Source of the DNA: an uncultured Clostridia bacterium | Lineage (GTDB): Bacteria; Bacillota; Clostridia; Christensenellales; UBA1242 | Assembly (NCBI GenBank): GCA_944376825.1 | Contig: CALWDY010000027.1 | Span: 29,583 to 93,582, forward strand | Length of the DNA: 64,000 bases | Direction: 5' to 3' | Shown here: piece by piece, positions 7,427 through 60,514 of the stretch | Position numbering within the stretch: position 1 is the stretch's first letter | How the letters are laid out: each line of letters starts with the position of its first letter | Notes under the pieces: generated by a model | What the model was told of the DNA's origin: nothing | Database searches by the model: none | What the model saw: the letters and a program-made list of their open reading frames with translations, nothing else | Translations under genes and position numbers: made by a program

Positions 7427-9109
7427 TTAATTATTCAAAGATTGTTTATAGTCATTTGACATATTTAGAAGTTCTTTTGAGTGCATAAGAGCAATTTCGC
7501 TTGATTTGCTTCCAAATAAAGTTGCCAAATATTTTAATAATTCGTTTTCATTTAAATATTTTGCAACACTCTTAGTTTGATTGTTTTCAACTGTTTTGCT
7601 TATATATATGTGTTTGTCTGCAAGTGCGGTAACTTGTGCAAGATGAGTTATACATATAATTTGATATCTTTTAGAAAGCATTGCTAATTTTTGACCAACT
7701 TTATATCCTATCTCTCCACTTACTCCTGCATCCACCTCATCAAAAACTAAAACTGATACATCGTTTGCATTAGCAAAAACATTTTTAATTGCAAGCATAA
7801 ATCTGCTCATCTCTCCGCCGGAAATTGTTTTTGCCAAACTTTTTTGTTCTTCGCCAACATTGGCAGAAAACAAAAATTCCACTTCGTCAATTCCATTATT
7901 GGTAAAGTCACATTCATTTTCTTGTTTTAAGTTTTTAAAACTAATTTTAAATTGTGTGTTTTCCATGCCAAGAGAAAAAAGTTCATTTTTAACTTTTTGT
8001 TCTACTTCTTCACTTAACTCTAATCTTAAATTGTGAAGTTTTAGGCACTCGTTGTATAATTTATGTTTAATTTCATTTTGATTGGTTATTAGTTTTTTTA
8101 ATATAGCTTCACTGTTTATGATGTCGTCATATTCTTTTTTTATTTTGTTCAAATAAATTTCAATATCTTCAAGAGAAGAGCCATATTTTTTCTTTAATGA
8201 TTTAATTTGATCTTTCCTTTCACTTATACTGTCAAGTTCTGTTTCCGAGAAAGACATGTTAGATAAATACTCTTTTATCGATGCACATATATCTTCTATT
8301 TCAATTATACATCCGTTTAACCTTTCGTTATATTGAAACAGTTTGCCATCATATTCTTTTGCAATGTTTAAATTGGACAAAGCATTGTTTAACTCATTGT
8401 TTTTTAAAGAATTATAACATTGATTTAGGGATGTTGAAATTTTTTCGTAATTTGAAAGTGCTTTTATTTTTTCTTCCAAAACAACATCTTCATTTTTTTC
8501 TAATTTTGCATTTTCTATTTCTTTAATTTGATAAGAAAGCAAATCCAATGTTCTCTCTCTATCTTCACCATGCCCGCCTATTTTTTCAATTTCCTTGTTT
8601 ATGTCTTTATATGATTGCAAAAGATTTGCTATGTTTTCTTTTGTTTTTTCAAGCAAGTTTGGTTTATACGAATCTAACAACTTGATATGATTTTTTACAT
8701 TTAAAATGCTAACGCTTTCATTTTGTCCATAAAAATCTAAAATTAAAGCTCCTATTTGTTTTAACATAGAAACAGTAACAGGTTCTCCATTTAACAAGCA
8801 AAAAGACTTTCCCTCAATATTAAAACTTCTAGAAACAATCAGCATGTCTTCACATTCAATTTCAAATTCATTTAACTTTTCAATTACCTTTTCCCCAATA
8901 TTTTCAAATATTGCTTTTACAACTAGTTCAGTTGCTCCGTGTCTTATATTGTCTTTTGACGGTTTATCTCCAAGAACAAAATTTAATGCATCTAATATAA
9001 TACTTTTACCCGCTCCCGTTTCTCCAACCAAAACATTAAAGCCTAAGTGAAAACTTAGACTTGTATTTTCAATAATCGCAAAATTTTTTATGGTTAATGT
9101 TTTTAACAT
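7427..9109 (-). CDS. recN: DNA repair protein RecN
   Basis: Walker A GETGAGKS, long coiled coils, an SGGE signature and a C-terminal Walker B VLVFDEVDAG. Confidence 0.95.
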   Translation of the reverse strand: MLKTLTIKNFAIIENTSLSFHLGFNVLVGETGAGKSIILDALNFVLGDKPSKDNIRHGATELVVKAIFENIGEKVIEKLNEFEIECEDMLIVSRSFNIEGKSFCLLNGEPVTVSMLKQIGALILDFYGQNESVSILNVKNHIKLLDSYKPNLLEKTKENIANLLQSYKDINKEIEKIGGHGEDRERTLDLLSYQIKEIENAKLEKNEDVVLEEKIKALSNYEKISTSLNQCYNSLKNNELNNALSNLNIAKEYDGKLFQYNERLNGCIIEIEDICASIKEYLSNMSFSETELDSISERKDQIKSLKKKYGSSLEDIEIYLNKIKKEYDDIINSEAILKKLITNQNEIKHKLYNECLKLHNLRLELSEEVEQKVKNELFSLGMENTQFKISFKNLKQENECDFTNNGIDEVEFLFSANVGEEQKSLAKTISGGEMSRFMLAIKNVFANANDVSVLVFDEVDAGVSGEIGYKVGQKLAMLSKRYQIICITHLAQVTALADKHIYISKTVENNQTKSVAKYLNENELLKYLATLFGSKSSEIALMHSKELLNMSNDYKQSLNN

Positions 9110-10571: not shown

Positions 10572-10614
10572 CTTTTATACATATATTCAATAGATTTACT
10601 ATATATTTAAAAAA

Positions 10615-11181
10615 TATGAAGGCAACACTTTAAGTAAACCTTGTGGCATAGGTTCGGTAGGATTTCCCAAATTTTGCACCCACCGTCACCGCATGGGCAG
10701 TTTCCTTTTACGCAAAATTTTAACACCGAATCGCCACTTAGACCACACTATAATCCCCAAAGTGTTTGAATATTCAACAGTCTAGAAGTTTTCCTTAACG
10801 CCTTAAACTATTCTTAGCTTTTTTTGCAAGTTAAATTTCATGTATATAACCAAAATTCAAATTGGCCAATTTAAAATTTAGTTTTTGCATACAATCCCAA
10901 TAAACTCACTCAAAGCAGGCTACTCTGCACACAGCCATGTTTTTAAACCGCAATGCAGGTTCTTACCCCAAGTAGTACAATTTAACAATGCACCATTTTG
11001 GGCCTCCACGATAATTGGGTCGGGTGCTATATGCCATTATAGCGCGCCCAAAAATCTTAACTTCCAGCACACACCCCAATTTGGGCAATCAAAGCATGCA
11101 CAAGAAACTTCACAGTTGTGCCCTTCGTTGCTTATCTTTCAACTTCCAAATAATTTAAGACGACTAGAATACTGCGCCTTC
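10615..11181 (-). ncRNA. Large structured non-coding RNA, OLE (ornate large extremophilic) class candidate; the ends are approximate
   Basis: This lies in a 760-nt gap with no credible ORF. It is locally G+C rich: I counted 26/60 G+C at 10981-11040 against 14/60 in xseA at 12301-12360. The 3' domain has five strictly nested helices (plus coordinates 10625-31/10759-65, 10631-35/10736-40, 10643-47/10733-37, 10653-59/10724-30, 10678-82/10694-98). UUGGG/CCCAA motifs recur. The synteny nusB-xseA-xseB-RNA-4TM protein...argR-recN matches published OLE loci. Confidence 0.7.
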
Positions 11182-11187
11182 ATTAAT

Positions 11188-11216
11188 ATTATAACATACA
11201 CACATTAATATTTCAA
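11188..11216 (-). promoter_or_regulatory. Strong sigma-A promoter directly upstream of the structured RNA
   Basis: The minus strand reads TTGAAA, a 17-nt spacer, then TATAAT, with TG at the extended -10 position (aTGtTATAAT). Confidence 0.6.
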
Positions 11217-11294: not shown

Positions 11295-11501
11295 TTATTT
11301 AAAATCTTTTTCTAATAAAACATCTAATTCGTTAGATATAATTGTTATCTTTCCTTTGTTTTCGTTCAACTGTTGACTGCATTTTTCTGCCAACAACTTA
11401 CCCTCTTCAAATAATTTTGTAGCTTCATCAAAATCACACTCGCCACTTTCTAACTGATTAACAATTTCTTCAAGGCGTTTTAACATTTTTTCAAATTCCA
11501 C
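11295..11501 (-). CDS. xseB: Exodeoxyribonuclease VII small subunit
   Basis: 68 aa. FEKMLKRLEEIVNQLESGE..FDEATKLFEEG is the XseB signature. It overlaps xseA. Confidence 0.9.
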   Translation of the reverse strand: MEFEKMLKRLEEIVNQLESGECDFDEATKLFEEGKLLAEKCSQQLNENKGKITIISNELDVLLEKDFK

Positions 11502-12684
11502 TTTTTTCTCCTTTAATTTTTAAAACTTCAACAATGGCTTCCCCATCAATAAATGTCAATTGTAAATTGTCATTTGGTTTTATATTTTTTATAGACAAAA
11601 TTTTTTCATTGCCTTTTTTTACACTTGCATATCCTAACTTCAAAACTTCTTTTGGGTTTAATTTTTTTAGCATCGAAGAAAGCATTTCAAATTTATGTTG
11701 TTTTGCCTCTGCAAATGTTTTTATTGCATGCATAAATTTTATTAATGTATTATTAAAGCGATTTTGATACCTTATATTTATATTTTTATAATTTTTATAA
11801 AAATCTTTACAAACATCAATAAAATTTTGTTGTTTATCTATATAAACACCCTTTATTGATTGTTTCAGCTTTGCTATGCATTGCTTAAAGTTTAAAATAT
11901 AATCTTTAATGTTGCTAAAAACAAGTTCTGCACCCGCACTTGGCGTAGGAGCTCTCAAATCACTGCAAAAATCACAAATAGTAAAATCAGTTTCATGGCC
12001 AACGGCCGACACAATAAATTTTTGACAGTTATATACTGCGTCAGCAACAATCTCGGTATTAAATGGTTGCAGGTCTTCAAGCGAGCCTCCTCCCCTTGCG
12101 ACAATAATAACATCAACATTATAATTATCAAAAAAACTAATTCCTTTTGCAATTTCATTCTCAGCGTTTACACCTTGAACTTTTACAGGATACAAAACTA
12201 TGTCTATAAAAGGATTTCTTCGAGTCCCAACATTTATTATATCTTGAATTACTGCCCCTTCCTTACTAGTTACAACACCAATCCTTTTTATGTTTGATGG
12301 CAAAATTTTTTTTCTGCCTTTATCAAAATACCCTTTTTTTCCCAATTTATTTTTAAGTTCAAGAAATTTTTGATATAACTCTCCCATTCCATATTTTGCT
12401 ATTTTAACAACATTAAAATTTAATTTTCCGCCTTTAACATAATACCTTGGAGTTCCTGTAACTATAACACTTTCACCATTAGAATACAAAAAATTAGATG
12501 TATCAAAACATACACAAGAAAGCGTTGCGTTTTCATCTTTTAGTGTAAAATACGCCACACCCCTAACAATACTCAACCCAGAAATTTCACCCAAAACTTT
12601 TATGTTATAAAGCATTTCTTCCGCATCAAATATTTGTTTTATATACATCGACAATTGAGAAACTGTAATAGGTTTTTCTTCCAT
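11491..12684 (-). CDS. xseA: Exodeoxyribonuclease VII large subunit
   Basis: N-terminal OB fold (VSQLSMYIKQIFD...VLGEISG), then IGVVTS..GA..QDI and ARGGGS.EDL motifs. Confidence 0.95.
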   Translation of the reverse strand: MEEKPITVSQLSMYIKQIFDAEEMLYNIKVLGEISGLSIVRGVAYFTLKDENATLSCVCFDTSNFLYSNGESVIVTGTPRYYVKGGKLNFNVVKIAKYGMGELYQKFLELKNKLGKKGYFDKGRKKILPSNIKRIGVVTSKEGAVIQDIINVGTRRNPFIDIVLYPVKVQGVNAENEIAKGISFFDNYNVDVIIVARGGGSLEDLQPFNTEIVADAVYNCQKFIVSAVGHETDFTICDFCSDLRAPTPSAGAELVFSNIKDYILNFKQCIAKLKQSIKGVYIDKQQNFIDVCKDFYKNYKNINIRYQNRFNNTLIKFMHAIKTFAEAKQHKFEMLSSMLKKLNPKEVLKLGYASVKKGNEKILSIKNIKPNDNLQLTFIDGEAIVEVLKIKGEKSGI

Positions 12685-26740: not shown

Positions 26741-27202
26741 TTAAAATTCTATTACAGGGCTTACTTGCGCCACATTCTTTTTTTCGAACTGTATCATGAT
26801 GTTATTGTCTTCGATTTCTACAAATTCATCATCAAATTTTTTTAATAGTCCTTTATACTTCTTTTTTCCATTTTGCGAACTATATAAGGTGATTTCAACA
26901 AGTTTATCTTTGTTCCTTAAAAAATCTCTTTGAGATTTAATAGGTCTGTCTAAACCGGGTGAACTCACATTTAAAATGTAGGTCGCATCATTTGTTGGAT
27001 TAATTTCATCTAAAAGCGGTTCTATAATATCATTAACCTTTTCACAATCTTCAATGGTTATTCCATTGTCGTTGTCTATATAAAAAGTTAAATTCATTCC
27101 ATCAACTTTTTTAACATATTCAACTTCTACAACTTCATAACCCATTTTTTCTATTATTGGATTAATTTTTTCTTCGCATATTTGTGCAACTTTTCCAGCC
27201 AT
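26741..27202 (-). CDS. rimP: Ribosome maturation factor RimP
   Basis: 153 aa with GYEVVEVEY.K.....L.FYID...GI...DCEKV...I...LD and VSSPGLDRPIK. Confidence 0.9.
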   Translation of the reverse strand: MAGKVAQICEEKINPIIEKMGYEVVEVEYVKKVDGMNLTFYIDNDNGITIEDCEKVNDIIEPLLDEINPTNDATYILNVSSPGLDRPIKSQRDFLRNKDKLVEITLYSSQNGKKKYKGLLKKFDDEFVEIEDNNIMIQFEKKNVAQVSPVIEF

Positions 27203-27223
27203 ACAACCCCCATTCTACAATTA

Positions 27224-27246
27224 AGAGTGGGTTCATCACCCACTCT
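27224..27246 (-). promoter_or_regulatory. G+C-rich 9-bp hairpin in the rimP-nusA leader
   Basis: AGAGTGGGT-5 nt loop-ACCCACTCT. There is no clear U-tract, so it may be an attenuator or processing element. Confidence 0.3.
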
Positions 27247-27309
27247 CAATCTAGCATACCAAAGTATATCATAAATATAAATACAAATCAATAATTTTTA
27301 TAATATTTT

Positions 27310-28881
27310 TTAAATTTCGTTTAATTTTAAAAAAACTTCCGCTGTAGCCGTTGCATCGGCAAGTGCTCTATGAGCATTATTTAATGTTAAATTTAGTGCT
27401 TCAACAACATTTATTAGTCTATATCTTGGCAAATACAATTTGTTTTTTGCAATCACCATGGCATCATATGTTTGATTATTAAAAAACAAACCAGCTTTTT
27501 GCGCACTGTTATTAATAAAAGCAAAGTCAAAAGCAACATTATAACCAACTAAAATGCAGTTTTCACAAAACTTAAAGAAATCGGCTATTGCATCGTTATT
27601 GTTAGGTGCATTTTTTACCATATCGTTTGTGATTGTTGTCAAATTTGTTATTTCTTCTGGAATTTCGTTTTCAGGGCAAATTAAAGTTTGAAATTGCTCT
27701 TTAATTTTTCCATCCACAATTTTAACAGCACCAATTTCTATCACTTCATTTACAATCGGATCAAGCCCCGTTGTTTCAACATCAAACACAACAAAATTGT
27801 TATTATTGATAAAGTCATTATAAATTGGTTTTTTATCAAAAATATTTTCCTGTTTAAGTGGCATATATATTGTAGGCTTAACAACTTTATAATTTTCAAA
27901 ATGAATGTTTTGCGTTGGTTTCTGCACTTCTACTTTTGATTCTAATTTTTTTTCTTGTTTAATAATTTCACAAATAGAAATACTTTTTAAACTTAAAGTC
28001 TTTTCCCTTTGACCTTTTTTTATATCTCCAATAACCAAAATTTTATCGCCATCTTTTAAGGTTTTAGCTTTCTTGTATGTAGTTTTATTAGAAAAATAAA
28101 TTGCAGATATACTTGCTGTTTCATCTGTAAGAGTAAAAGTATAATAATAACTTTCTTCGCTACCACCTTTCTTTTTGGTTCTCCTAGATATATAAGTTTT
28201 TTCCGCCAAATTGCTTATTTGCCCTGCCAAAATAACAGACTGTTTTTCTTCTGGCTGATCTTTTATATATTCAGGCATTGGCGTTATGTCCACGCCAATA
28301 ATTTTTTCAGGTTCATAAACCTCGTAACGAACAACTTTTTTGGGTTTTGGTAAATTTTTAATAAGTTCCTCTTCACGCTTTAATAAAATTTTATCATCCA
28401 TTATTTCTTGTTTATTTTCTAAAATATCAACACTAAAATTTGCAATAAAATTTTTATTTAATTCTTTTAATATATCATCTTTTAAATTATTGTAAATAAA
28501 ATAATCATATATTTCTTTTATTAAATTAAACTTAACAACAATATTAAATTCATTTCTAATTACATTAATATTTTCATCTTTATAATATGCAAATAATGAA
28601 GAATTAACATTTTTTAAATATTTTATTAAATGTTTTTTTATTAAATTTTCATCTAAATAACTTTTTTTAAATTTAATTTTAATTTCACATAATAAATTTA
28701 ATTCTTTTTTAATAAATTCTATTATTTCTTTTTTTTCATCATCTTCTAAATCTTTAATATTTTCCGGATACAAAAACCAAATTTCCGCACATGATAAAAG
28801 AGTGTTATATTCAACTTTTAACACTCTTAAAAAATCATATTTAAAATTAAACTCTTTGTTTATATTATCTAATATTTCCAT
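27310..28881 (-). CDS. PolC-like N-terminal/OB-fold plus DnaQ-type 3'-5' exonuclease protein lacking PHP and polymerase domains
   Basis: 523 aa. The OB segment is ILAGQISNLAEKTYISRRTKKKGGSEESYYYTFTLTDETASISAIYFSNK. Exo I is FVVFDVETTGL and Exo III is HRALADATATAEVF. It lies between rseP and rimP, where polC normally lies. Confidence 0.7.
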   Translation of the reverse strand: MEILDNINKEFNFKYDFLRVLKVEYNTLLSCAEIWFLYPENIKDLEDDEKKEIIEFIKKELNLLCEIKIKFKKSYLDENLIKKHLIKYLKNVNSSLFAYYKDENINVIRNEFNIVVKFNLIKEIYDYFIYNNLKDDILKELNKNFIANFSVDILENKQEIMDDKILLKREEELIKNLPKPKKVVRYEVYEPEKIIGVDITPMPEYIKDQPEEKQSVILAGQISNLAEKTYISRRTKKKGGSEESYYYTFTLTDETASISAIYFSNKTTYKKAKTLKDGDKILVIGDIKKGQREKTLSLKSISICEIIKQEKKLESKVEVQKPTQNIHFENYKVVKPTIYMPLKQENIFDKKPIYNDFINNNNFVVFDVETTGLDPIVNEVIEIGAVKIVDGKIKEQFQTLICPENEIPEEITNLTTITNDMVKNAPNNNDAIADFFKFCENCILVGYNVAFDFAFINNSAQKAGLFFNNQTYDAMVIAKNKLYLPRYRLINVVEALNLTLNNAHRALADATATAEVFLKLNEI

Positions 28882-30141
28882 TTATAATCCCACAACAGCA
28901 ATATGCACAATATCAACCACAATTACAAATAACAATAAAACCAAAAGCCCATAAAAATGAATATAGTTTTCAACTTTTCTGCTTACAACAGGTTTGCCAA
29001 AAATCCATTCTAGCAGTGTAAATACAGCATGCGAACCATCTAGTGCCGGAATAGGAAGAAAGTTAAACACAGCAAGATTTGCGGAAAGTAATGGTAACAA
29101 AATTAAGAAATTCATAAAACCACTTTGAGTTATAGTTGAAATCATACCAATTGTTGATATTGGTCCTCCAAGTTGACTAAATGCAATTTGTCCTGTTATA
29201 ATTTGCCAAAATCCTTTAAGAACAACCCACGCAAACCCAATTGAAACTTCAAAACTTCTGCCAAGCGCTTCAAAAAATGAGTGTTTATATGGTTGCATAG
29301 AATAAAGATTTGAATATTCACTTATTCCTTCTTCTTGGTTGTACACTTTATATTGAACAACTATTTCTTTTTCTTGGTTGTTACTTTTTACAGTGATTGT
29401 AAAATCTGTGTTAGGTTCGATACTTGACAAATGCTGTGACAAAGTTCCCGTTAATATACTAACTCTTTGTCCGTTCACTTTTACAATAACATCATCTTCA
29501 TTTAATTGTGTGCTATAAATTAAAATAGTGTTGTTTTGCAAGCATTGCAAATCACCTGCCGAAAGTAATTTTGCCTGAGGGATATCATAACCGTATGAAA
29601 CAAGCAAAATAAACGAAAACACAATAGCACTTAAAAAGTTAAAAAACACACCAGCGCCATAAACAAGCAATCTTTTCCATGCTTTTTGATTATTAAATGC
29701 ATCCTTGTTGTAAGGTTTTTTTTCTTTAATTTTGTCTATATCATTTGTTGTTATTTCATTAATTTCACTTAAAATTTGTGTTGTTTCTTTTTTATCAACA
29801 TTTAAATTTTTTGTTTCACTTTTTTTATATTCTTTCTTTTTACCATTTTTATCAAGTTTTTCAGTTTTTATATCATCATCCTCGTCGTCGTCGCCTTCTC
29901 CTTCAAAAGCACAATATCCACCAAGTGGAAAAATACGAAGTGAAATCTTTTCACCTCTTTTGTTAATTTTTGTAAATATTGCTTTACCAAATCCTATTGA
30001 AAATTCGGTTATTTTAAAACCTAGCATTCTTCCAACAACATAATGCCCTACTTCATGAATTAGCACCATTAAAAGCAAAATGCAAATTGCCAAGAAAACA
30101 TATAAAACCGTACTAAATAACCCGGCACATAAAAAACTCAT
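28882..30141 (-). CDS. rseP: RIP zinc metalloprotease RseP/RasP (M50 with PDZ domain)
   Basis: HEVGHY in TM1, a PDZ-like segment, and a C-terminal NLLPIPALDG-type motif (NFLPIPALDG). It has an acidic/basic insertion after the first membrane domain. Confidence 0.9.
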   Translation of the reverse strand: MSFLCAGLFSTVLYVFLAICILLLMVLIHEVGHYVVGRMLGFKITEFSIGFGKAIFTKINKRGEKISLRIFPLGGYCAFEGEGDDDEDDDIKTEKLDKNGKKKEYKKSETKNLNVDKKETTQILSEINEITTNDIDKIKEKKPYNKDAFNNQKAWKRLLVYGAGVFFNFLSAIVFSFILLVSYGYDIPQAKLLSAGDLQCLQNNTILIYSTQLNEDDVIVKVNGQRVSILTGTLSQHLSSIEPNTDFTITVKSNNQEKEIVVQYKVYNQEEGISEYSNLYSMQPYKHSFFEALGRSFEVSIGFAWVVLKGFWQIITGQIAFSQLGGPISTIGMISTITQSGFMNFLILLPLLSANLAVFNFLPIPALDGSHAVFTLLEWIFGKPVVSRKVENYIHFYGLLVLLLFVIVVDIVHIAVVGL

Positions 30142-34504: not shown

Positions 34505-37500
34505 TTATTGCTCTTCATCTATGTTTATATCAACATTTTTATTTTCATCTTCAATGTCTTTTTTCTCGCCTTTGATGTTTTTTTTATGGCGATTGAGTTT
34601 ATCACTTTCTTCCTTTGTTTTCTTTATAGTATTTACAGCAAAAATGTACATTTTAATAGAAACCCAAGCAATTATAGACACAAGAATAGCCCCCACTCCA
34701 ACTGTTACATATAAAAGCCAAGGTGGATTTGTTTGATTTTGTGCCAATGCAAATTTTAAACTTAAATCACTAATTTCAAAAACAATCATATTATCTACAA
34801 TTTGATAACCAACTTCTTTAATTTCGTTTTTATCATTGTATAAATAAATATTTAAATTTTCATTACTGTTTACATTTAATCTAACAACAACTTTTGTGTT
34901 TTTTGGGACATTACCTTCCACAGTAAACGAATATGAAACCAAAACTTTTTTTGAAGTTAACATATTGTTTATCTTTGATAATGTTTTACTTGATGTATCT
35001 TCGCACAACTCAACTTGCACATCGTTTAAAACCAAGTCTCCATATTTATCAAAAACTTCATTCCCATTTTGATTTATAAATGTTGGTGCCTTTATTATTT
35101 TTAAAACACCCGTAATAGAGCCTTTGTAGTTTTGTTCGTTTACAATAATTTCAAAATCGTAATCACCTATTTCTATCGCATTTAACACATTCATTTTTAC
35201 AACAGCCAAGCAATCTTTACTTAAACTAAATTTAGGCAATTTACTTTGGCCATCATAAACAAAAGTATCTTCTTCAACTGTTATAAAAACAGATTGTTTT
35301 TCTATTGTTAAAGTTGCCTCGTTTGAAATAGAACTATTATAATTTTCATTACCGTCAAAATATGCAACAACTTTGTAAATTCCTGCATTTATAGGGGTTT
35401 CCACTGATATGCCATTTTGAGTATAAACATAATTTAACTTTAAATTTTCTATTTCGTCAACGCTGTGAACTTTTCCATCATAAACAACATTTTTATCATT
35501 TAATGTTATATTTACATTTGCCTTTTGTATTTCAAAAAAACATTCGTTATAATTTGTTATTATATAATTTTGCAGTTCACAATTTTGCACCAATAATTTA
35601 TAACTGCCTACATTCTCTCCTTCTTCTCTATACACTAATAAGTCAAAAGGAATTTCATCACAACTTACATTGAATTGAATTTCTGGGTCATTTTGTCCAT
35701 ATAGTTTATTTTGATTTGGCAAAAATTCAAGTGTTATTTGTTTTTTGGTAATTACAAAATCATTTCCATGAAAAATTATGCTATAATTTTGCAAATTGTT
35801 CTCATCAAGTAAAATGTTATATACACCAACATTTTCGCCTTGTTGTCTAGTTAAATTTATTATAACAGAATCGTTATATTTTAATCCTTCTAAAACATAA
35901 GTAAGCGCGCAATCATCATCACCATATTGTTTTTCTTTTCTGTCAGCAAAAACATTTAAATCGGCTTTTTCAATGATGTATTTTGCCTCAACAAATTCAA
36001 TGTCATAGTTAGGATTATTTAAAGAGCCAATTGTGATATCATAAACACCAACATTTGTGCCATTTACTCTTGACAAAGTGCCAACAAAACTATCACCTTC
36101 CAAAATGTTAGAAGAATATGTTAATTGTTTATCTTCGTCTCCGTAAACCGAAGTTACATTATCTGCAACAACATTTACTTTGCGTTTTAATATTTCTAAC
36201 ACTCCTTGCATGTAAACAATTTCATAATTAGTATTTGATGATTTTATATCAATTAAATACGAACCAACATTTTCTCCATTTTCTCTTACATACTCATAAA
36301 TTAGTTGGTCATCATTTACAATGTCACCATAAATAACATCAAAAGTAAACATTGGGTCATTATCTCTATAAACCTTAGATAATGAATTTATTTTTATAAC
36401 AATCTTTCTTTTGTTGATTTTATAAGAAAAAGTTACCAAGTCAATTTTATAATTATCATTATTAACACTAACATCGTTTATTGCATAAGTTCCAACATCT
36501 TCCCCTTGTTGTCTTTGAATAGAAAACTCTAAAATATCACCATCTACAACATCTTCAATATTGTAAGTATATTTTATTGGCTGATCTTCTTCTCCATAAG
36601 TTTTTTGGTTATCGTTAGAAATGTAAACATGAATTGTTTTTTGTTCAATTGTAAGATTTCCATTTACATAGCTAATTACATAATTTTTATACTCTTTTGG
36701 TGTTATACAAATTTCATATTGTCCAACATTATTACTAGCGTTTTTAATATAAGCATTAAACACCAAATTATCTTCCTCTATTGCATTAGTTACAACACAA
36801 GAAATGTCATTTATAATTTCGCCATATGTAATTGTTTTGTTGACTGCTGTAACGGTTATTTCTCTTGGTAAAATTGTGTATGAGAACTGGCTTTTAGCAA
36901 AATAATTTTCTTCATTAATAGTTACAACAATTTCATATGTTCCTGCATTTATTGGACTAACTTGCTCATTATTTTTGTAAACTGCAAAAGTATAAGGTAG
37001 TTTGTTTTCTACTGTTATGACAGGGAATTTTTCTTGCTTATCATAAACAAAACTTTCACCATTAAAATCAATGCTTACACTTGCCCTTTTTATTTCAAAT
37101 TGCCCTGCTGTTTCACCGAAATAATTTTCATCTTGAATGCTAACAGTGTATTCATAAACACCAGCATTTATTGGATTTGCTACAAGCCCATTTTGAAAAT
37201 ATTGAATGGACATATGTTTATTTAATGAGTTGTTCGCAACAATATTTTTTTCTGTTCCATCGTATGCAAAATCAATGTCGTTAACAACTATTTCTAATTG
37301 TTTTTTGACAATTGTAAAACCTAAAACTCCGCTTCCTTCAAATTCGGTTGAACTTACACTATATTTTACAATATATTCTCCCACGCTAAATGGCGTAATT
37401 TCATTTTCCAAATCTTGTTTTTTATAGTAATTAAAAGAAATTAAACTATCATCAACATTAGATGTAAAATCTAAAAGAAAACCACTTTCATCAAAAATAT

Positions 37501-39178
37501 ATTCAGTTTTGTTTAGCTCCACAATTGCAATTTGTTTTTGAGAAATTGAAGCAAACAATTCTCCACTACCAACATAATTTTCTGTATCAATGCTGTATAC
37601 AATTTTATATTCCCCTGGATTTATAAAATCTACCATTAAATCATTTTGATAATAAACAAGTTTTAAATCTGTTAAATCATCAATATTGGCTGATAAATTT
37701 AATTCAACTTTATTTCCAGTATATGAGTACACATTTGTTAAAAGGCTAACATTAACTATTTTTCTAAATTGCACATAAACATTGTAATTTTCTTTTATAG
37801 TTAAATTGAAACTATTTCCAACAACATCAACTATTTCTTCATTTACTTTTACATAATAAAACTCGTAACCATCTTGTGCATTAAATGTTACTAATTGCTC
37901 TTGACCATATCGTAAATTATTATTTGAGCCAAAAACTTCTCCACCAGCAGAACATGAGACATTAACATTATAAAAATTATCATCAACATAAAAAGTAAAC
38001 TCTTGAATTTCATTGCTATTTAATGCTTCATCAAAAGAAGTAACTTTTAATGTATACATGCCATTTTCTGCCACCTCAATTGTATTTGTGCCATTAAAAA
38101 GTCTTTCACTGCTTTGTGTTGGCGTAGTACCATCTATTGTATATACAAAATATTCAGTTGCACAATTTGTTGTATTTTCATTAAAAGAAGCTTCAAAAGT
38201 AACTGTTTTTGTGTAATAAATTTCTTTCAATGAACTAACAAAAATTATTTCAGGCTTTTGAGTGTCAATTTTTTCTTCAACATAGTTAGAAGTATATGCA
38301 TTTCCTACATTGTCTACTGCCAAAATTTCATAATTGCCGTTTTGTGATATCTCATATGTATAAGTTGCTGTTTTTGTATCTTCACTAATTTCAAAATTTA
38401 ACAATTTGGCATTTCCAAAAGAAAATGTATTTATGCCTGACTCTGTATCTTGCACATTAATTGTTACAATTCTTTTTTGTTCATAATTTTGCGAATTTAA
38501 ATTTAAACTTACAGTTGGCGATGTCGTGTCTGTTGTGTTAAAAGTTAAAGTTGGCTCTTTAACTCTCATAATTTCATAAACTTCTTTTTTATATAACTCT
38601 TCAAATTTTAGTTGTAAATATGTTGCATTTTGTGGTTCAATTTCCAAAACATCAGGGCTATCTTTATAATCGTAAGATGTATAATCAACATAATTGGATG
38701 ATAAAACTTGATTATTTGAATCAAATGAACTAAAACTCATTCTAAGTTCGTCTTTGCCATCATCAACAAACCAAATTTTGCCACCATATTCGGATGCAAA
38801 ATAAGCACTTGCACTAACAGTTAGATATCCATTTCTGCTTGCCATTTGTAAATTATTTGCCAAATTTATTGTTGAAATAAATTTGGCTGTGGTTGATGCA
38901 AATTGAGTGTTGCTTTTGTGGTAGTGATAAAGTTCATTTTCTCTTTGTTGCCACATGTTTTTATCAGCAATATATTCAAAATAATCACAAATACTACTTA
39001 CCCCATTATTATTTGGATATAAATAATAGGTTCCTATTTTATCTATTGTTAAAATTTGCGATTGACCAACATTGGTTTCCGCAAAAACTTCACTGTTGCC
39101 TTTATTAAAAGAAAAAGCAATAGAAAAAACACAACAAATGATAAGTAATGAAATTGTTGATTTATATAATTTATTCAT
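34505..39178 (-). CDS. Giant surface protein: signal peptide, Ig-like and MBG (YG-x-x-DP..LTY) repeats, C-terminal TM anchor plus charged tail
   Basis: 1557 aa. At least 6 repeats are of the form YG(D/E).D..(L/I).Y....(G/D)..(Q/R).GE.VG.Y.I......NY.I, and there are further N(A/P)G.Y repeats. The C-terminal helix is WLLYVTVGVGAILVSIIAWVSI. No LPXTG motif is present. Confidence 0.75.
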   Translation of the reverse strand: MNKLYKSTISLLIICCVFSIAFSFNKGNSEVFAETNVGQSQILTIDKIGTYYLYPNNNGVSSICDYFEYIADKNMWQQRENELYHYHKSNTQFASTTAKFISTINLANNLQMASRNGYLTVSASAYFASEYGGKIWFVDDGKDELRMSFSSFDSNNQVLSSNYVDYTSYDYKDSPDVLEIEPQNATYLQLKFEELYKKEVYEIMRVKEPTLTFNTTDTTSPTVSLNLNSQNYEQKRIVTINVQDTESGINTFSFGNAKLLNFEISEDTKTATYTYEISQNGNYEILAVDNVGNAYTSNYVEEKIDTQKPEIIFVSSLKEIYYTKTVTFEASFNENTTNCATEYFVYTIDGTTPTQSSERLFNGTNTIEVAENGMYTLKVTSFDEALNSNEIQEFTFYVDDNFYNVNVSCSAGGEVFGSNNNLRYGQEQLVTFNAQDGYEFYYVKVNEEIVDVVGNSFNLTIKENYNVYVQFRKIVNVSLLTNVYSYTGNKVELNLSANIDDLTDLKLVYYQNDLMVDFINPGEYKIVYSIDTENYVGSGELFASISQKQIAIVELNKTEYIFDESGFLLDFTSNVDDSLISFNYYKKQDLENEITPFSVGEYIVKYSVSSTEFEGSGVLGFTIVKKQLEIVVNDIDFAYDGTEKNIVANNSLNKHMSIQYFQNGLVANPINAGVYEYTVSIQDENYFGETAGQFEIKRASVSIDFNGESFVYDKQEKFPVITVENKLPYTFAVYKNNEQVSPINAGTYEIVVTINEENYFAKSQFSYTILPREITVTAVNKTITYGEIINDISCVVTNAIEEDNLVFNAYIKNASNNVGQYEICITPKEYKNYVISYVNGNLTIEQKTIHVYISNDNQKTYGEEDQPIKYTYNIEDVVDGDILEFSIQRQQGEDVGTYAINDVSVNNDNYKIDLVTFSYKINKRKIVIKINSLSKVYRDNDPMFTFDVIYGDIVNDDQLIYEYVRENGENVGSYLIDIKSSNTNYEIVYMQGVLEILKRKVNVVADNVTSVYGDEDKQLTYSSNILEGDSFVGTLSRVNGTNVGVYDITIGSLNNPNYDIEFVEAKYIIEKADLNVFADRKEKQYGDDDCALTYVLEGLKYNDSVIINLTRQQGENVGVYNILLDENNLQNYSIIFHGNDFVITKKQITLEFLPNQNKLYGQNDPEIQFNVSCDEIPFDLLVYREEGENVGSYKLLVQNCELQNYIITNYNECFFEIQKANVNITLNDKNVVYDGKVHSVDEIENLKLNYVYTQNGISVETPINAGIYKVVAYFDGNENYNSSISNEATLTIEKQSVFITVEEDTFVYDGQSKLPKFSLSKDCLAVVKMNVLNAIEIGDYDFEIIVNEQNYKGSITGVLKIIKAPTFINQNGNEVFDKYGDLVLNDVQVELCEDTSSKTLSKINNMLTSKKVLVSYSFTVEGNVPKNTKVVVRLNVNSNENLNIYLYNDKNEIKEVGYQIVDNMIVFEISDLSLKFALAQNQTNPPWLLYVTVGVGAILVSIIAWVSIKMYIFAVNTIKKTKEESDKLNRHKKNIKGEKKDIEDENKNVDINIDEEQ

Positions 39179-42100
39179 TGTCTTCTCCTTTTAATTTATT
39201 TGGCAAACAGTAGAGTGTTTGCTGTTGATTTTTTATTTCAAACTTCAACGAAATTTTTATATCATTTATATCAATATCCGTTAATGTTGTATCTTTGTCA
39301 TAAACCATGTAAGTTTCTGTTATTTCGCTGGTACCAGTAACTGTAACAACTACATTTATTTCGTATTGTTCGCTTATTTGAAGTGTTCTTATAAAACCAT
39401 TTTCATCAATTGTATAGGTTAAATTGCAATAGTTAAATTTTGATGGCGTTTGACCACTGAGTGCTGACATTTGTTTTATATAGTTTGATACCGCAGTACT
39501 TGGATTTAAAACAAAAGTAAATATTGTGTTTGTTCCATTTTTTGCTAGTCCATTAATGCTTTTAATTGTTGATTTGTTAATTGTGTAAGCAAAATGATCG
39601 TATGGATACAAACCATAAATTGATTTATAATTTTCAGGTGTTGTATCGGTAAAGTTTCCATATGTTGCTTCATAATTTGAATTAACATCTTTAACCTGTT
39701 GATACTTAGTTTCTCCTGTATTGTTATTGTAATATGTTAAAAGTGATACTCTTGGATCAACTCCTGCCACCTTTTCACCATAATTTAATTTTTCAGTTAA
39801 AGTTATTCCGTTTGAATCTGTTTTCCTTATTCCTCTAACCTGCTGAGTTCCTCCCATAGTCAAGTTTACAGTTCCCACAATATTAACATATGAACTATTT
39901 GCTTCTCTTAAAAGTTGATATCCTTTTTGGAAAACAAAATATGTATAATCTACTGATGGAATAACAAAATTATGTAAAGTTTCATCTACAACCTGAACAC
40001 TAGAAGTTTCAAGCGATTCACAATTTAAGTACGATAATGTACCTTTAATAATGTTTGTGCCAACTAAACCACTTAAAACAAAATCTCCGTTTGAATTTGT
40101 ATAAACATAATTATTTCCTGCCGTTATCTTCATACCGATAACAGGAACATTGCTTCCTTCAACTGTAACTCTACCACTTATTTTATACGATTTTTGAATT
40201 GCAATGGAAATTGCACTTGGAGATTTTACTCCAATTATTTGTGGATTAAATACAAATCCATCTTTTTCAAAAGAAAGATAAACTTGTCCACTAACATTTT
40301 TCAAAATATAATTTGATGATGATATTGTGTGAATTTGATTTTCAATTCCATTTTGCTGTACTGTAAGAATTATATTTGAATACTCTGTTATTCCACTGAA
40401 ATTTATTGAAATATTGTAAGTTAAATTAATATTTTCATTTTCGGCAAAATCACTGTAAGTTTTTGATACAGAATTATAACCTGACTTTATAAATTCCACT
40501 TGACTGTTTGCATCCAAATTATTAAGTTCAAAATATCCACTTTCATTTGTGATTGTTTCATTATCGCCACATCTAACAATAACATCACCAAGTGCAATTT
40601 CGTTTGAATTTACATAACCACAAATTGTAAACATTGCTTCAAAATCTATTTGCTTGCTTATGTTGTAATTCAATCCCCCCCTAAATGAATATCCTCTTTT
40701 TTCTATAAGCAAAGTTCCCGAGCCAACTAAATTATCAAAAGAGTAAAATCCATTTTCATCCGTTAAAATGCTTTGACTTTGAGTTGAAACCATAACCCCT
40801 TGCATTTTAACGCCATTAAACGAAACATAACCGTATATCCTATATGAAGCATTTACATCATAATTTTGTGGAGCTATAACATTATAAGAAGAAAATTTAT
40901 AACCGTCTTTTTCAAACGACAACGACTTTTCACCTTCAATATTACTTATTTGAAACTGACCTAAATTATTTGTAAAATATTCTTCTTCACCTAAAATTAT
41001 TTTTACATTATCAAGTAATACATCGTTTGATTTAATCGTCCCACTAATAGTATAACTTGCACTTATTATTTGATTTTCAAAACTATTTATATCAAAATTT
41101 TTTAAATCAAAAGCATAACCTTCTTTTGAACATAAAATATTCGCCTCATCATTATATAACACAAAAGAAAATTCACCTTGACTGTTAGTTAAATATTCTT
41201 CATCACCTACACAAACTAAAACATTACTTACAAATAAACTTCCACTTTTTATAGTCCCTTGAATGATTTTTCCAGCATTAATAGTTAAATTATCATAACC
41301 ACTAATAAGTGTGGCATCTTCAAATTGAAATCCTGTTTTATTTAAATATAAAAAATTTTCGCCACTAAGATTATTAATTTTAAAATATCCATTTTCATTT
41401 GTTTGGGTTATTATTTCACCAACTCTTATGTCTACATTGTTTAATTTTGTGTTTCCCCAAGTTACATAACCCTCCACAAAGTAAGATGCTTCAAAATTTA
41501 TATCTTTTCTTTCATTATCATCACTCGTAACAAAAATGCTTGCTGGCAAAAATGTATATCCTTGCTTAAATGCTAACAATTCACAATCATTTTTTAGTAA
41601 ATTAAAATAGTAATACCCCTTTTCATTTGTTGTAACCGTTTGTTCGCCCGCTGTAATTGTAACGCCACTAACAGGATTACCGTTTGACATAACAAAGCCA
41701 CCAAGTTCAAAACCATTTAACACAAAATCATATTGCCCACCAAATGTAACATCGTATGATGTTGGTCTTAGTTTCAACCCATCTTCATTTTCATAAAATA
41801 GTATATTTTTACCTTCAATATCAATAAATTCAAAATATCCTAAATTGTTAGTAAGTATTTGTTGTGATATATTTGTTTGATAGTTTGTAACAAAAATTTT
41901 TGTGTTTGCTAATGGAGTTTCTTCACTAATTGCGTACCCAAAAACTTTATATTTGACATTTATTACAACATTTTGTGTATTCTCATTAACAACAACACTG
42001 CTTGTTGTGGTGATACAATCATGATTGCAAGACAAAGTATTTGTTCCTTGAAGATTGAAAATTTCAAAGAAACCTTGACTATTTGTAAATGTACTATTTT

Positions 42101-43814
42101 CATTATAGGAAACTTCAACATTTGGCATAACGATGTTTTGACTATACACATAACCTGAAACATTATAAGTCAAATTAATTTGTTGATTATTGTTATTATA
42201 ATTTGCTTCAATATTTAAAGGATTGTAACCTTCACACAAAATGCTAAAAATTTGCGTTCCGTGCAAATTATTTATTGCTATTATTCCATCTTGATTAGTT
42301 GTGAATTGTTTGTCATTTATTGTAATATTTTTGTTTTTTAAAATTATTTCTCCTGTTTTTATAACTGCACTAAATGAATAAACTTTTTCCATTTTTACGG
42401 TGTAAATTAGTTGACTTTCATTTAATGTAATAGAATTACAATAATAACCATTCAAAATAAACTCACAACAATAATCATCAAACAAATTTATTAGTTTAAT
42501 TTGTCCGAGATCATCGGTAACATAACTATTTGAGTTTACAAAAATTTCAGTGTTTTTTAGCAATTCGCCATCATCATCAATAAATTTTATAGTAGCATCA
42601 TAAAATTTGTAAGCATCAACAATAAAGTTTTGATTTGGTTCACTTACAATAACTTTATCGGGCATAAACTTATAACCTTCAAGACTAAATGCTATTGTTT
42701 CACCTAATATAATTTTGTTTAAGTTAAATTCACCATCAGCACTTGATATTACATTATTTTTTCCATAAGATACCAAAACATTTTCTAGTGGTTTGTTTTT
42801 TGTTAAAATGTTTCCACAAACTTCTGTATAGCCAATTATGTTTAATTTTGTGTTATTTTCATCGCAACTTATTTTGTCAAAATAAAAGTCTGTGTGTGAT
42901 ATTTCTATTTCATTATCACCATATAGATTATCCAGTGCAAATTCCCCATTTTCATTTGTTAGAGTTTCTTTGTCTAAAACTTTAATAGTTGCATTTTGTA
43001 TTGGATAATCACCACTTTTTACACAACCATCTATTGAATAAATTTTATAAGCCCTAACTAAAAGATTTTCATTTTCTTTTTCTATGGTAAACTCACCAGG
43101 GATAAATTTTAAATTATTATTTATTAGTTTAATTTTTGAACCCAGTTTTAAATTTTTTAAAACAGCGTTTGTTTGACCAAAACTTTCTGCATTCCCATCG
43201 ATTTCAATTTGAGTTTCATTAATAAAATCGTTTGAAAGTCCAACATAATCAATATTTAAATTAGCACTGGTAGTTGCATTAATTTCTATATTGTTGCAAT
43301 TAGTATAATCACAGTTTACATCAAAAAACAAAAAGCCGTTTTTTTCAGCTGTTAATGTTGCTGGACCAGCAACATTATATATAACAAATTCTCCATTTTC
43401 ATTTGTAACAGTGTATCCACCTTTTATTGCTGATGCATATACCATTACACTATTGACACCCACATCTTCACTTTTTACTTTTCCAGAAATTGTATAATAT
43501 CTATATGCTGTAAAATTTGCATTTTCAGTTGCCGAAAAAAATGTTTGCGTTGAATTTTCAAACACATATCCATCTTTATTTGCTTCAATAGTTATTCCTG
43601 TTGAAATTTGATTAAAGCAAAAATAACCATTTTCATCTGTTGTGACATTTCCCGCTTCGGATGAAAGTAAAACACCTTCAACCCCTTTTCCATCTTCTAA
43701 AACATATCCTGATATGTTAAATGTAGCAGGAGGAGTTTCTCCGCACGCACAAAACAAACAAAATCCGCATAATAAAACACTTAGTACTGCGATAATCTTA
43801 TGTAAATTTTTCAT
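39171..43814 (-). CDS. Giant secreted (possibly lipid-anchored) protein with about 16 carboxypeptidase-regulatory-like beta-sandwich repeats and a unique C-terminal module
   Basis: 1547 aa. The N-terminus LSVLLCGFCLFCAC is signal/lipobox-like. A roughly 85-aa unit recurs: ISGYV...G.pv.gV.V.....T(D/N)(E/S)(N/Q)G.F.(F/I).NL.G...L...K.GY.F. The stop overlaps the next gene's start as ATGAATAA. Confidence 0.75.
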   Translation of the reverse strand: MKNLHKIIAVLSVLLCGFCLFCACGETPPATFNISGYVLEDGKGVEGVLLSSEAGNVTTDENGYFCFNQISTGITIEANKDGYVFENSTQTFFSATENANFTAYRYYTISGKVKSEDVGVNSVMVYASAIKGGYTVTNENGEFVIYNVAGPATLTAEKNGFLFFDVNCDYTNCNNIEINATTSANLNIDYVGLSNDFINETQIEIDGNAESFGQTNAVLKNLKLGSKIKLINNNLKFIPGEFTIEKENENLLVRAYKIYSIDGCVKSGDYPIQNATIKVLDKETLTNENGEFALDNLYGDNEIEISHTDFYFDKISCDENNTKLNIIGYTEVCGNILTKNKPLENVLVSYGKNNVISSADGEFNLNKIILGETIAFSLEGYKFMPDKVIVSEPNQNFIVDAYKFYDATIKFIDDDGELLKNTEIFVNSNSYVTDDLGQIKLINLFDDYCCEFILNGYYCNSITLNESQLIYTVKMEKVYSFSAVIKTGEIILKNKNITINDKQFTTNQDGIIAINNLHGTQIFSILCEGYNPLNIEANYNNNNQQINLTYNVSGYVYSQNIVMPNVEVSYNENSTFTNSQGFFEIFNLQGTNTLSCNHDCITTTSSVVVNENTQNVVINVKYKVFGYAISEETPLANTKIFVTNYQTNISQQILTNNLGYFEFIDIEGKNILFYENEDGLKLRPTSYDVTFGGQYDFVLNGFELGGFVMSNGNPVSGVTITAGEQTVTTNEKGYYYFNLLKNDCELLAFKQGYTFLPASIFVTSDDNERKDINFEASYFVEGYVTWGNTKLNNVDIRVGEIITQTNENGYFKINNLSGENFLYLNKTGFQFEDATLISGYDNLTINAGKIIQGTIKSGSLFVSNVLVCVGDEEYLTNSQGEFSFVLYNDEANILCSKEGYAFDLKNFDINSFENQIISASYTISGTIKSNDVLLDNVKIILGEEEYFTNNLGQFQISNIEGEKSLSFEKDGYKFSSYNVIAPQNYDVNASYRIYGYVSFNGVKMQGVMVSTQSQSILTDENGFYSFDNLVGSGTLLIEKRGYSFRGGLNYNISKQIDFEAMFTICGYVNSNEIALGDVIVRCGDNETITNESGYFELNNLDANSQVEFIKSGYNSVSKTYSDFAENENINLTYNISINFSGITEYSNIILTVQQNGIENQIHTISSSNYILKNVSGQVYLSFEKDGFVFNPQIIGVKSPSAISIAIQKSYKISGRVTVEGSNVPVIGMKITAGNNYVYTNSNGDFVLSGLVGTNIIKGTLSYLNCESLETSSVQVVDETLHNFVIPSVDYTYFVFQKGYQLLREANSSYVNIVGTVNLTMGGTQQVRGIRKTDSNGITLTEKLNYGEKVAGVDPRVSLLTYYNNNTGETKYQQVKDVNSNYEATYGNFTDTTPENYKSIYGLYPYDHFAYTINKSTIKSINGLAKNGTNTIFTFVLNPSTAVSNYIKQMSALSGQTPSKFNYCNLTYTIDENGFIRTLQISEQYEINVVVTVTGTSEITETYMVYDKDTTLTDIDINDIKISLKFEIKNQQQTLYCLPNKLKGEDNE

Positions 43815-52747: not shown

Positions 52748-52783
52748 AAAACAAAACAATTCTACCACAAAATGGTAGAATTG
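52748..52783 (-). terminator. Perfect 11-bp hairpin plus U-tract between rpoZ and priA
   Basis: The minus strand reads CAATTCTACCA-TTTTG-TGGTAGAATTG followed by TTTTGTTTT. It ends at the priA start codon. Confidence 0.55.
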
Positions 52784-53082: not shown

Positions 53083-57260
<4,178 letters not shown>

Positions 57261-59383: not shown

Positions 59384-60514
59384 ATGATATATCTTGATAA
59401 CAGTGCAAGCACATATATAAAACCTAAGGAAGTAATTAACGCTACTATGTTAGGATTAACAAAATATTCAGCAAACCCCGGTAGAAGTGGCCATAAATTA
59501 AGTATGGACAGCGCTATTATGGTTGAAAAAGTTAGAGAAAAAGTTTGCAAGTTTGTAAATGCACCGCAGGCAGTTTTCACAGAAAATTGTACAGATGCTT
59601 TGAATCTTGCAATATTAGGAACATTTAAAGAAGACGGACATGTGATATGCACTATAAATGACCACAACGCAAGCGTAAGACCTCTTTTTGAATTACAAAA
59701 AAAATATGGACTTGAAATAAGCATTGCAAGTCCAAAAACTCCTGGGACAATTACCCTAGAAGACATAAAACAACATATAAAGCAAAACACATATTTAATT
59801 TGTGTAAATCACATGTCTAATGTTGATGGCGAAATAACAGATATAGAATCAATTGGCAACTATTGTAAAGAGCACAATATCATTTTTTTGGTTGATTGTG
59901 CTCAAAGTGCAGGACATATAAAAATAGACATGGAAAAAATGGGAATAAATTTTTTGGCACTTGCACCACACAAGGCTCTTTACAGTCCGCAAGGCGTTGG
60001 AGTTTTAGCATACAAAGAAAATTTCAAATTAAATCCCATAAGATTTGGCGGAACAGGAACAGAGAGCGAAAATGTTTATCAACCCTTAGGAACGGTTGAA
60101 ACTTACGAAAGCGGAACACTTCCAACCCCTAATATTTTAGGACTAGGAGCCGGAATTGACTTTGTAGAAAAAAATTTTAGCATTATAAACGAAAAAATTG
60201 ATGACCTTTCAACATACTTAAACTTTGAGCTTAGCAGTATTAATGGAGTTAAGGTTTACACTCACCCAAACAACTCTTTTGGTGTAATTGGTTTTAATAT
60301 ACACGACTTTGGTTCTACAGATGTAAGCCAAATTCTTAGTGATAAATACGGCATTTGCACTCGTGGTGGCTTGCATTGCGCAGGACTTAAACATAAATTT
60401 TTAGGAACGCTAAATCAAGGAATTGTAAGAGCGTCCTTATCATTTTTCAATAATTTTAGCGATTGTCAAAAACTTGTTAAAGCAGTTAAACACATCGCCA
60501 AGTCGGGCTACTAA
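59384..60514 (+). CDS. Class V aminotransferase-fold cysteine desulfurase family protein
   Basis: IYLDN.AST, NHMSNV.G, DCAQSAGH, the PLP lysine in APHKALY, and the active-site loop TRGGLHCAG. Confidence 0.85.
   Translation: MIYLDNSASTYIKPKEVINATMLGLTKYSANPGRSGHKLSMDSAIMVEKVREKVCKFVNAPQAVFTENCTDALNLAILGTFKEDGHVICTINDHNASVRPLFELQKKYGLEISIASPKTPGTITLEDIKQHIKQNTYLICVNHMSNVDGEITDIESIGNYCKEHNIIFLVDCAQSAGHIKIDMEKMGINFLALAPHKALYSPQGVGVLAYKENFKLNPIRFGGTGTESENVYQPLGTVETYESGTLPTPNILGLGAGIDFVEKNFSIINEKIDDLSTYLNFELSSINGVKVYTHPNNSFGVIGFNIHDFGSTDVSQILSDKYGICTRGGLHCAGLKHKFLGTLNQGIVRASLSFFNNFSDCQKLVKAVKHIAKSGY

Follow-up and report, generated by a model that had tools for sequence, protein, structure and literature searches.

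PolC is regarded as the essential and defining replicase of Firmicutes and serves as a clinical antibiotic target (ibezapolstat). In PolC, the 3'-5' exonuclease (Exo) domain is inserted in the PHP domain, while the epsilon subunit (DnaQ) of Escherichia coli is a separate DEDDh proofreading protein, which reportedly carries a weak clamp-binding motif beside its exonuclease domain and forms a complex with alpha on the clamp. PolCs without the Exo insertion are known solely from Clostridia and Negativicutes, with one Clostridium carrying two PolCs (Timinskas et al. 2014, PMC3919608), and in Bacteroidetes DnaE1 a DnaQ-type exonuclease is attached N-terminally by a flexible linker of ~60 residues instead of residing inside the PHP domain (PMC3919608). 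Furthermore, the exonuclease of Bacillus subtilis PolC proofreads DnaE in trans (PMC5627055). Here we describe a gene that holds the polC position in a 64,000-nucleotide stretch of DNA from an uncultured Clostridia bacterium (Christensenellales, UBA1242; contig CALWDY010000027.1, positions 29,583 to 93,582; hereafter the window), but encodes a protein of only 523 aa with the N-terminal domain (NTD), OB fold and exonuclease of PolC.

Comparison with PolC (NF001688/TIGR01405) reveals a homologous, collinear NTD, OB fold and DEDDh Exo domain and the same slot before rimP-nusA-infB. In contrast to PolC, the short protein lacks both halves of PHP, palm, thumb, fingers, (HhH)2 and the C-terminal clamp motif, measures about 515 aa instead of 1350–1600 aa across its family, carries a Qxx[LIM]F linker where the PHP-N segment belongs, and has no PHP on either side of its Exo domain. 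It resembles epsilon in being a separate DEDDh proofreading-type protein that passes the TIGR00573 cutoff. Unlike epsilon, it has no C-terminal peptide for binding alpha or PHP, because the polypeptide ends with the Exo domain; its candidate clamp motif lies upstream of Exo rather than downstream, about 350 extra N-terminal residues (PolC NTD and OB) are present, and its exonuclease belongs to the PolC rather than the proteobacterial DnaQ lineage. Judged by these sequence features, the short protein is not an epsilon orthologue. With the Exo-less PolCs it shares the uncoupling of polymerase and exonuclease in the same bacterial classes, although the loss is the opposite one: Exo in those proteins, which retain the polymerase, and the polymerase in the short protein, which retains Exo. 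The arrangement of a DnaQ-type exonuclease on a linker outside PHP recalls Bacteroidetes DnaE1, where the exonuclease is nevertheless covalently fused to a polymerase, and the B. subtilis precedent likewise involves a PolC-type exonuclease that corrects DnaE errors at the primer end, but does so from inside an intact, polymerising PolC. No description of the family was found in the literature searched, and C-family polymerase surveys of 2014 and 2026 are silent on such a protein. By domain, it belongs to the DnaQ-type DEDDh superfamily but falls outside PolC.

Domains of the short protein and their relation to PolC

The gene and the segments of its product are as follows, each with the evidence on which the assignment is based:

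27310–28881, minus strand: whole gene for an NTD-OB-linker-Exo protein of PolC origin, 523 aa (open reading frame (ORF) list, homologues, collinearity with PolC)
28402–28881, minus strand: NTD, residues 1–160, two beta-beta-alpha-beta (KH-like) subdomains (AlphaFold (AF2) pLDDT about 85–94; hhalign)
28330–28401, minus strand: variable helical linker 1, residues 161–184 (pLDDT 61–66, lowest in the N-terminal half; conservation 0.22)
27964–28329, minus strand: pre-OB strand and PolC-type OB fold, residues 185–306 (Pfam, hhalign, Foldseek)
27814–27963, minus strand: linker 2, residues 307–356, in place of PHP-N and disordered at 310–324 (pLDDT <50 at 310–324)
27838–27852, minus strand: candidate beta-clamp-binding motif Q344-E-N-I-F348 (pattern conservation; consensus Q-x-[ND]-[LIM]-F)
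27313–27813, minus strand: DEDDh (DnaQ-type) 3'-5' exonuclease of PolC type, residues 357–523 (Pfam RNase_T, E=8e-33; match to 2p1j)

Pfam analysis of the short protein identified an RNase_T/DEDDh exonuclease at residues 364–517 (E=8e-33) and an OB fold (tRNA_anti-codon) at residues 235–302 (E=4.5e-8), but, unlike in real PolCs, neither PHP (PF02811) nor the Pol3 core (PF07733, PF17657, PF14579), and the HxH and DH motifs of PHP are likewise absent from the protein. The top NCBIfam model was PolC itself (PRK00448/NF001688), yet the score of 169 bits against a cutoff of 873 failed PolC membership, and TIGR01405 (PolC) also remained below threshold (141 bits against 1043). BLASTP against a genuine PolC from Intestinibacter returned a single collinear high-scoring segment pair aligning residues 34–520 to PolC 38–577 (E=3e-37), and the AF2 model (mean pLDDT 87) retrieved full-length Enterococcus faecium PolC (9qpc_A) as the top PDB match in Foldseek (E=2e-17, 404 columns). 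The first-pass annotation, which had been made from the DNA sequence alone, read the gene as a PolC NTD/OB/exonuclease module without PHP, palm, fingers or thumb, and both halves of this reading hold: NCBIfam, Foldseek, hhalign and the collinear BLASTP alignment agree on the module, and Pfam together with the end of BLASTP collinearity after Exo on what is lacking. The motifs it had quoted (FVVFDVETTGL, HRALADATATAEVF and the OB segment) were all found in the translation.

Two pieces of PolC are absent, namely the PHP-N segment, which occupies the OB-Exo interval of every true PolC examined (KRVELHxHT...ITDHG, about 85–95 aa) and is replaced by an unrelated linker in the short protein, and everything that follows Exo. 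As PHP-N is missing as well, the protein corresponds neither to a simple C-terminal truncation nor to a fission product able to rebuild the PHP barrel, and the sequence thus makes simple gene fission an unlikely origin. With PHP and all polymerase domains lost, the short protein cannot synthesise DNA.

The exonuclease is the best-defined part of the protein, which ends 6 residues past the last Exo helix. Conservation was counted over at least 280 unique full-length family members (500–573 aa, median 516 aa) that form two deep branches (A and B), and the DEDDh residues D367, E369, D452, H504 and D509 were invariant in 280/280 of them. The best PDB sequence match was the Thermotoga maritima PolC exonuclease 2p1j (E=8e-33), with 117 bits versus 32 bits for epsilon. 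The cutoffs of the dnaq-family domain model TIGR00573 (95.3 bits against 71.5) and of PF00929 (114.7 bits against 24) were passed, while the epsilon equivalog models TIGR01406 and PRK05711 scored far under theirs. DinG and ExoX appeared among the structural and sequence matches, with PolC proofreading domains being closer. A neighbour-joining tree of Exo domains was too crude to tell whether the family falls within or next to any particular PolC lineage.

Relating the N-terminal half to PolC required more sensitive comparisons. The Pfam PolC NI/NII models matched none of 40 family members, an NTD hidden Markov model restricted to branch A failed to detect PolCs, and an initial hhalign comparison of the NTD with a mixed PolC alignment gave a weak 49% probability. 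It took a broader profile and a coherent subset of PolCs to bring out the homology of the NTD to PolC: an 84-sequence family profile aligned collinearly with PolC N-termini over 142 columns (95% probability, P=4e-8), and residues 1–310 matched PolC NTD and OB with 99.5% probability (P=5e-23), compared with P=0.1–0.5 in reversed-sequence controls (P=0.3 for the NTD control). The first 330 residues, for which the first-pass annotation had named a lack of PolC resemblance as the observation that would overturn its reading, therefore do show PolC similarity in profiles. In the OB region, G220 and F263 are almost invariant. The PolC NTD has been published as two KH-like subdomains (PMC3919608), with which the AF2 model of the short-protein NTD agrees, and it is related to tau domain V and has been proposed to contact tau (PMC8373059). 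Since the PolC NTD is disordered in 9qpc (PMC12592400), there is no solved PolC NTD for comparison.

Linker 2 contains a short peptide of striking regularity. The strict pattern Qxx[LIMF]F occurs in 241/280 members (86%) and a loose form in 29 further members, in a fixed position 18–21 residues before Exo I, against an expected 0.005 occurrences per comparable window in other parts of these proteins. Q344 is kept in 272/280 members (97%) and F348 in 248/280 (89%; 96% with L counted), branch B conserves the motif to the same degree, and the motif adjoins the segment with pLDDT <50. The bacterial beta-clamp-binding consensus is QL[SD]LF, and the clamp motif of E. coli alpha is QADMF; variants within the family include QADLF and QTDMF. 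The Qxx[LIM]F peptide thus resembles the beta-clamp consensus and is a candidate DnaN-binding tether. Among the true PolCs examined, 23/26 carry Qxx[LIF]F in the C-terminal tail (mostly Q[LI]SLF) and none in the OB-Exo interval; two of the remaining three are ORFs that, as read, stop without the usual PolC tail, and one ends in QMSIL. The short protein ends in ...FLKLNEI, with no PolC-type C-terminal Q[LI]SLF, and from these patterns we infer that it gained a clamp tether of its own when the PolC C-terminus was lost.

Family, hosts and genomic position

The short protein belongs to a large family. A protein database search returned more than 120 full-length relatives (501–538 aa, 38–100% identity), and a profile search of 1.84 billion representatives yielded at least 150 clusters defined at 50% identity, almost all of them 500–545 aa long and matching end to end. 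Branch B is 28–35% identical to the window protein and equally large, with 790 matches at E<=1e-20, of which the best 120 are all 503–528 aa long. Conservation extends along the whole length, including the NTD and OB fold. All named sources are uncultured Clostridia metagenome-assembled genomes (MAGs), designated 'Clostridia bacterium', 'uncultured Christensenella sp.', Candidatus Scatosoma or Candidatus Coproplasma. No cultured carrier was found: JGI-named members are metagenome bins, and the branch-B search returned MAGs alone. Public annotation labels the family as 'exonuclease domain-containing', '3'-5' exoribonuclease' or 'hypothetical'.

In the window, the gene, which has an ATG start and a stop codon at 27310–27312, is flanked by the following features:

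28882–30141, minus strand: rseP (M50 site-2 protease), upstream; its stop codon TAA abuts the ATG of the short gene
27203–27309, minus strand: intergenic spacer of 107 nt before rimP (sequence; no coding remnant)
26741–27202, minus strand: rimP, downstream, first gene of rimP-nusA-ylxR-infB (ORF list; Pfam RimP_N/RimP_C in a syntenic locus)

The ORF list and the sequence thus agree with the first-pass annotation on a short ORF that begins right behind the rseP stop codon and leaves a gap of 107 nt to rimP. A consensus scan of the spacer picked out a site resembling a promoter (27291 to 27263) together with a weak hairpin (27241–27225), neither of which is evidence of function. The 64-kb window contains no N characters and therefore no scaffold join.

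Among the matches listed, ~45 GTDB species and ~16 other metagenome or assembly loci carry the short gene, most of them directly upstream of rimP-nusA-ylxR-infB, and in the branch of the window protein it also lies directly downstream of rseP. In the same scan, other Clostridia carry a PolC of 1350–1600 aa at this position, e.g. Intestinibacter (L072), Peptoniphilus (L079) and Halanaerobiales (L080 and L083). The gene order assumed in the first-pass annotation (rseP ... polC-rimP-nusA-infB) is indeed found in these four PolC-bearing loci and in L084, so that its statement that the short gene sits in the polC slot stands as well. NusA identity to the NusA of the window amounts to 46–96% in short-gene lineages versus 41–48% in PolC-bearing lineages, and these values fit vertical inheritance of the short gene within one broad Clostridia clade.

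Several loci depart from the common arrangement. In L087 (10001–11527) and L088 (10001–11512), the intact short gene lies outside the rimP operon, between tilS and a SipL-like gene (sipL), and in this subclade the frr-uppS-cdsA-rseP cluster is inverted and about 8 kb away. Short-family ORFs of 578–596 aa were found in L024 (9632–11368), L035 (6858–8645), L039 (9536–11326) and L045 (5589–7361), whose apparent N-terminal extension of 70–90 residues may merely be due to an in-frame start codon further upstream. Between the short gene and rimP lie insertions of 3.6 kb in L038 (11430–14615, minus strand) and 7.8 kb in L049 (4991–12661); considered as possible sites of a polymerase, they were found to hold unrelated content, namely a 1061-aa ORF on the opposite strand in L038 and a 1173-aa lipoprotein-like ORF with small genes in L049. 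Genuine PolCs of 1343–1354 aa occur in L048 (9005–13069, 'Clostridia bacterium' MAG) and L051 (9032–13063, 'Christensenella sp. UBA7703'); their N-terminus is shortened, with Exo I at about residue 330, and there is no rimP within 7 kb downstream.

Proposed role and competing explanations

We propose that the short protein is a functional, polymerase-less descendant of PolC that works at the replication fork as a 3'-5' proofreading exonuclease in its own right, a reading to which we give an even chance. In this mechanism, the linker peptide would bind the beta sliding clamp (DnaN) and replace the clamp motif of the lost PolC C-terminus, the NTD would retain a replisome contact, for which tau has been proposed in the case of the PolC NTD, the OB fold would grip template single-stranded DNA, and the tethered exonuclease would excise misincorporated 3' nucleotides in trans for the C-family polymerase of the cell, much as epsilon does next to alpha on the E. 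coli clamp and as the PolC exonuclease does for DnaE in B. subtilis. Because Clostridia pair PolC with DnaE1, some having DnaE1 only (PMC3919608), and two PolC-less Clostridia are documented (PMC3919608; PMC4070872), DnaE1 is the most plausible partner, in which case the polymerase function of PolC would have been lost in the clade. In carrier bacteria, proofreading is therefore probably the task of a separate protein, and replication may proceed without any PolC polymerase. We put forward more tentatively the broader scenario that a clade of order rank, made up of hundreds of species-level lineages of gut and rumen Clostridia, dropped the PolC polymerase and uses DnaE1, with the clamp-tethered PolC remnant as a free-standing proofreading subunit.

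The searches for a polymerase are consistent with this proposal. No match to PolC residues beyond 590 was found within 10 kb of any of ~60 loci, no genome among 80 GTDB loci (among the matches listed) contained both the short gene and PolC, and the 16 extra loci from a metagenome scan had no polymerase nearby. The larger ORFs of the 64-kb window include no DNA polymerase of any family.

Several points weigh against the proposed role. The pattern of never finding both genes is weak, as it holds among the matches listed and MAGs are incomplete; the NTD-OB-Exo query is blind to a PolC without Exo, the matches listed when the polymerase portion of the nearest PolC was searched against proteins were all close relatives of that query (at least 77% identity), and the polymerase searches covered the loci and their 10-kb flanks. 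Foldseek with the isolated NTD gave weak generic matches (tandem-KH, BON, ring-building motif), and clamp binding is deduced from a sequence pattern whose position 2 is mostly E/A/S/T and rarely the canonical L. In addition, an active PHP proofreader is usual in the DnaE1 of Clostridia (PMC12926913), so that a further one is not obviously needed. Finally, on the leading strand of the window G exceeds C and A exceeds T, a combination that was confined to PolC-bearing genomes in one survey (PMC4070872).

The composition of the window deserves closer consideration here, since the first-pass annotation had linked the extreme co-orientation of its genes to PolC-type replication. The window has 47/48 ORFs of at least 150 aa on the minus strand and GC skew of one sign throughout, the sole plus-strand gene encoding a class-V aminotransferase (59384–60514). 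As a sign of PolC the co-orientation is weak, given the marked strand bias of PolC-less Clostridia (PMC4070872). Strand bias neither requires PolC nor follows from its presence (PMC4070872), and the coding-strand A-T skew disappears at third codon positions. Strand bias together with a purine-rich leading strand is therefore not diagnostic.

The strongest competing explanation, which we consider less likely than the proposed role, holds that a PolC-type polymerase is encoded elsewhere, either complete or without Exo and/or NTD-OB. The short protein would then be a proofreading and accessory subunit separated from this polymerase, or a subfunctionalised paralogue that stayed in the old slot following duplication. 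The near-universal presence of PolC in other Firmicutes (PMC4070872) speaks for such an arrangement, as do the Exo-less PolCs of Clostridia and Negativicutes and the Clostridium with two PolCs introduced above, the strand bias and purine asymmetry of the window, and the fact that an Exo-less PolC in the same genomes would be invisible to the searches used. It is at odds with the lack of polymerase-part matches within 10 kb of the ~60 loci and of any genome with both forms among the 80 GTDB loci (matches listed), with the missing PHP-N, which leaves no simple fission that rebuilds a PHP barrel, and with the candidate clamp motif that the short protein itself carries, a hint that it is tethered independently.

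A further alternative, which appears improbable to us, places the protein in DNA repair or end processing apart from fork proofreading, where it would act on 3' single-stranded DNA ends or flaps in recombination, gap repair or mismatch repair and its PolC ancestry would be merely historical; the OB fold would then serve single-stranded DNA binding. DEDDh exonucleases fused to other modules do act in repair, with DinG and ExoX among the matches, many clamp-binding proteins are repair factors, and the gene persists after its move away from the rimP operon in the L087/L088 subclade. Yet the PolC-specific NTD is kept family-wide, the exonuclease is nearer to PolC proofreading domains than to the DinG/ExoX types, and the gene occupies the ancestral position with translational coupling in the housekeeping frr-uppS-cdsA-rseP cluster. 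The remaining explanation, a truncated pseudogene or assembly artefact of the full-length polC of ~1400 aa expected a priori at this site, has only that expectation in its favour and is refuted by the length of 500–573 aa shared by 280 or more unique sequences across independent assemblies, the invariant catalytic residues, the conservation over the whole length and the clean 107-nt spacer in a window without N; the first-pass annotation had rightly doubted a decayed pseudogene, and the assembly join that it named as a possible cause of truncation is excluded by the recurrence of the short gene in about 60 independent assemblies.

Other features of the window and implications of the family

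Besides the short gene, the window contains a full-length ornate large extremophilic (OLE) RNA at 10603–11196 on the minus strand (401.6 bits against a gathering score of 50), the sole Rfam match. Genes for replication and repair are dense and encode an SMC/RecN-type ATPase, XseA, PriA, LigA, PcrA and RarA/MgsA (7427–9109, 11491–12684, 50552–52768, 53083–55026, 55035–57260 and 61340–62590), but no DNA polymerase. Two tandem, slightly overlapping giant ORFs of 1557 and 1547 aa (34505–39178 and 39171–43814, both on the minus strand) have no NCBIfam match; the former, which was the one scanned with Pfam, shows MBG_2/MBG_3 repeats, and a similar giant MBG ORF lies at the same place in the relative L001 (86% identical). 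Considered as a hidden polymerase, the two ORFs gave no polymerase matches, and judged by their repeats they probably encode cell-surface proteins. A 434-aa ORF at 62624–63928 on the minus strand matched no Pfam family at E<=1e-5.

A large and abundant clade of gut Clostridia thus carries, in the polC slot, just the accessory and proofreading third of PolC, and surveys that start from the polymerase domain, or from complete genomes, would overlook this family. Its existence makes several questions testable: whether Firmicutes can run a DnaE1-only replisome, how proofreading can be handed over from an integral domain to a separate subunit, which would be the reverse of the presumed PolC history and a parallel to epsilon, and which stand-alone roles are played by the poorly understood PolC NTD and OB fold, here under selection without a polymerase. 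If the broader scenario is true, the epsilon subunit would have been re-invented here independently, from PolC, and the clade would stand as a living intermediate that links the two-polymerase replisome of Firmicutes to one using DnaE1 only. The finding would gain considerably in weight, both for the evolution of the replisome and for the PolC inhibitor spectrum, if the carriers are truly without a PolC polymerase, in which case these commensals would lack the antibiotic target and be intrinsically insensitive to PolC inhibitors.

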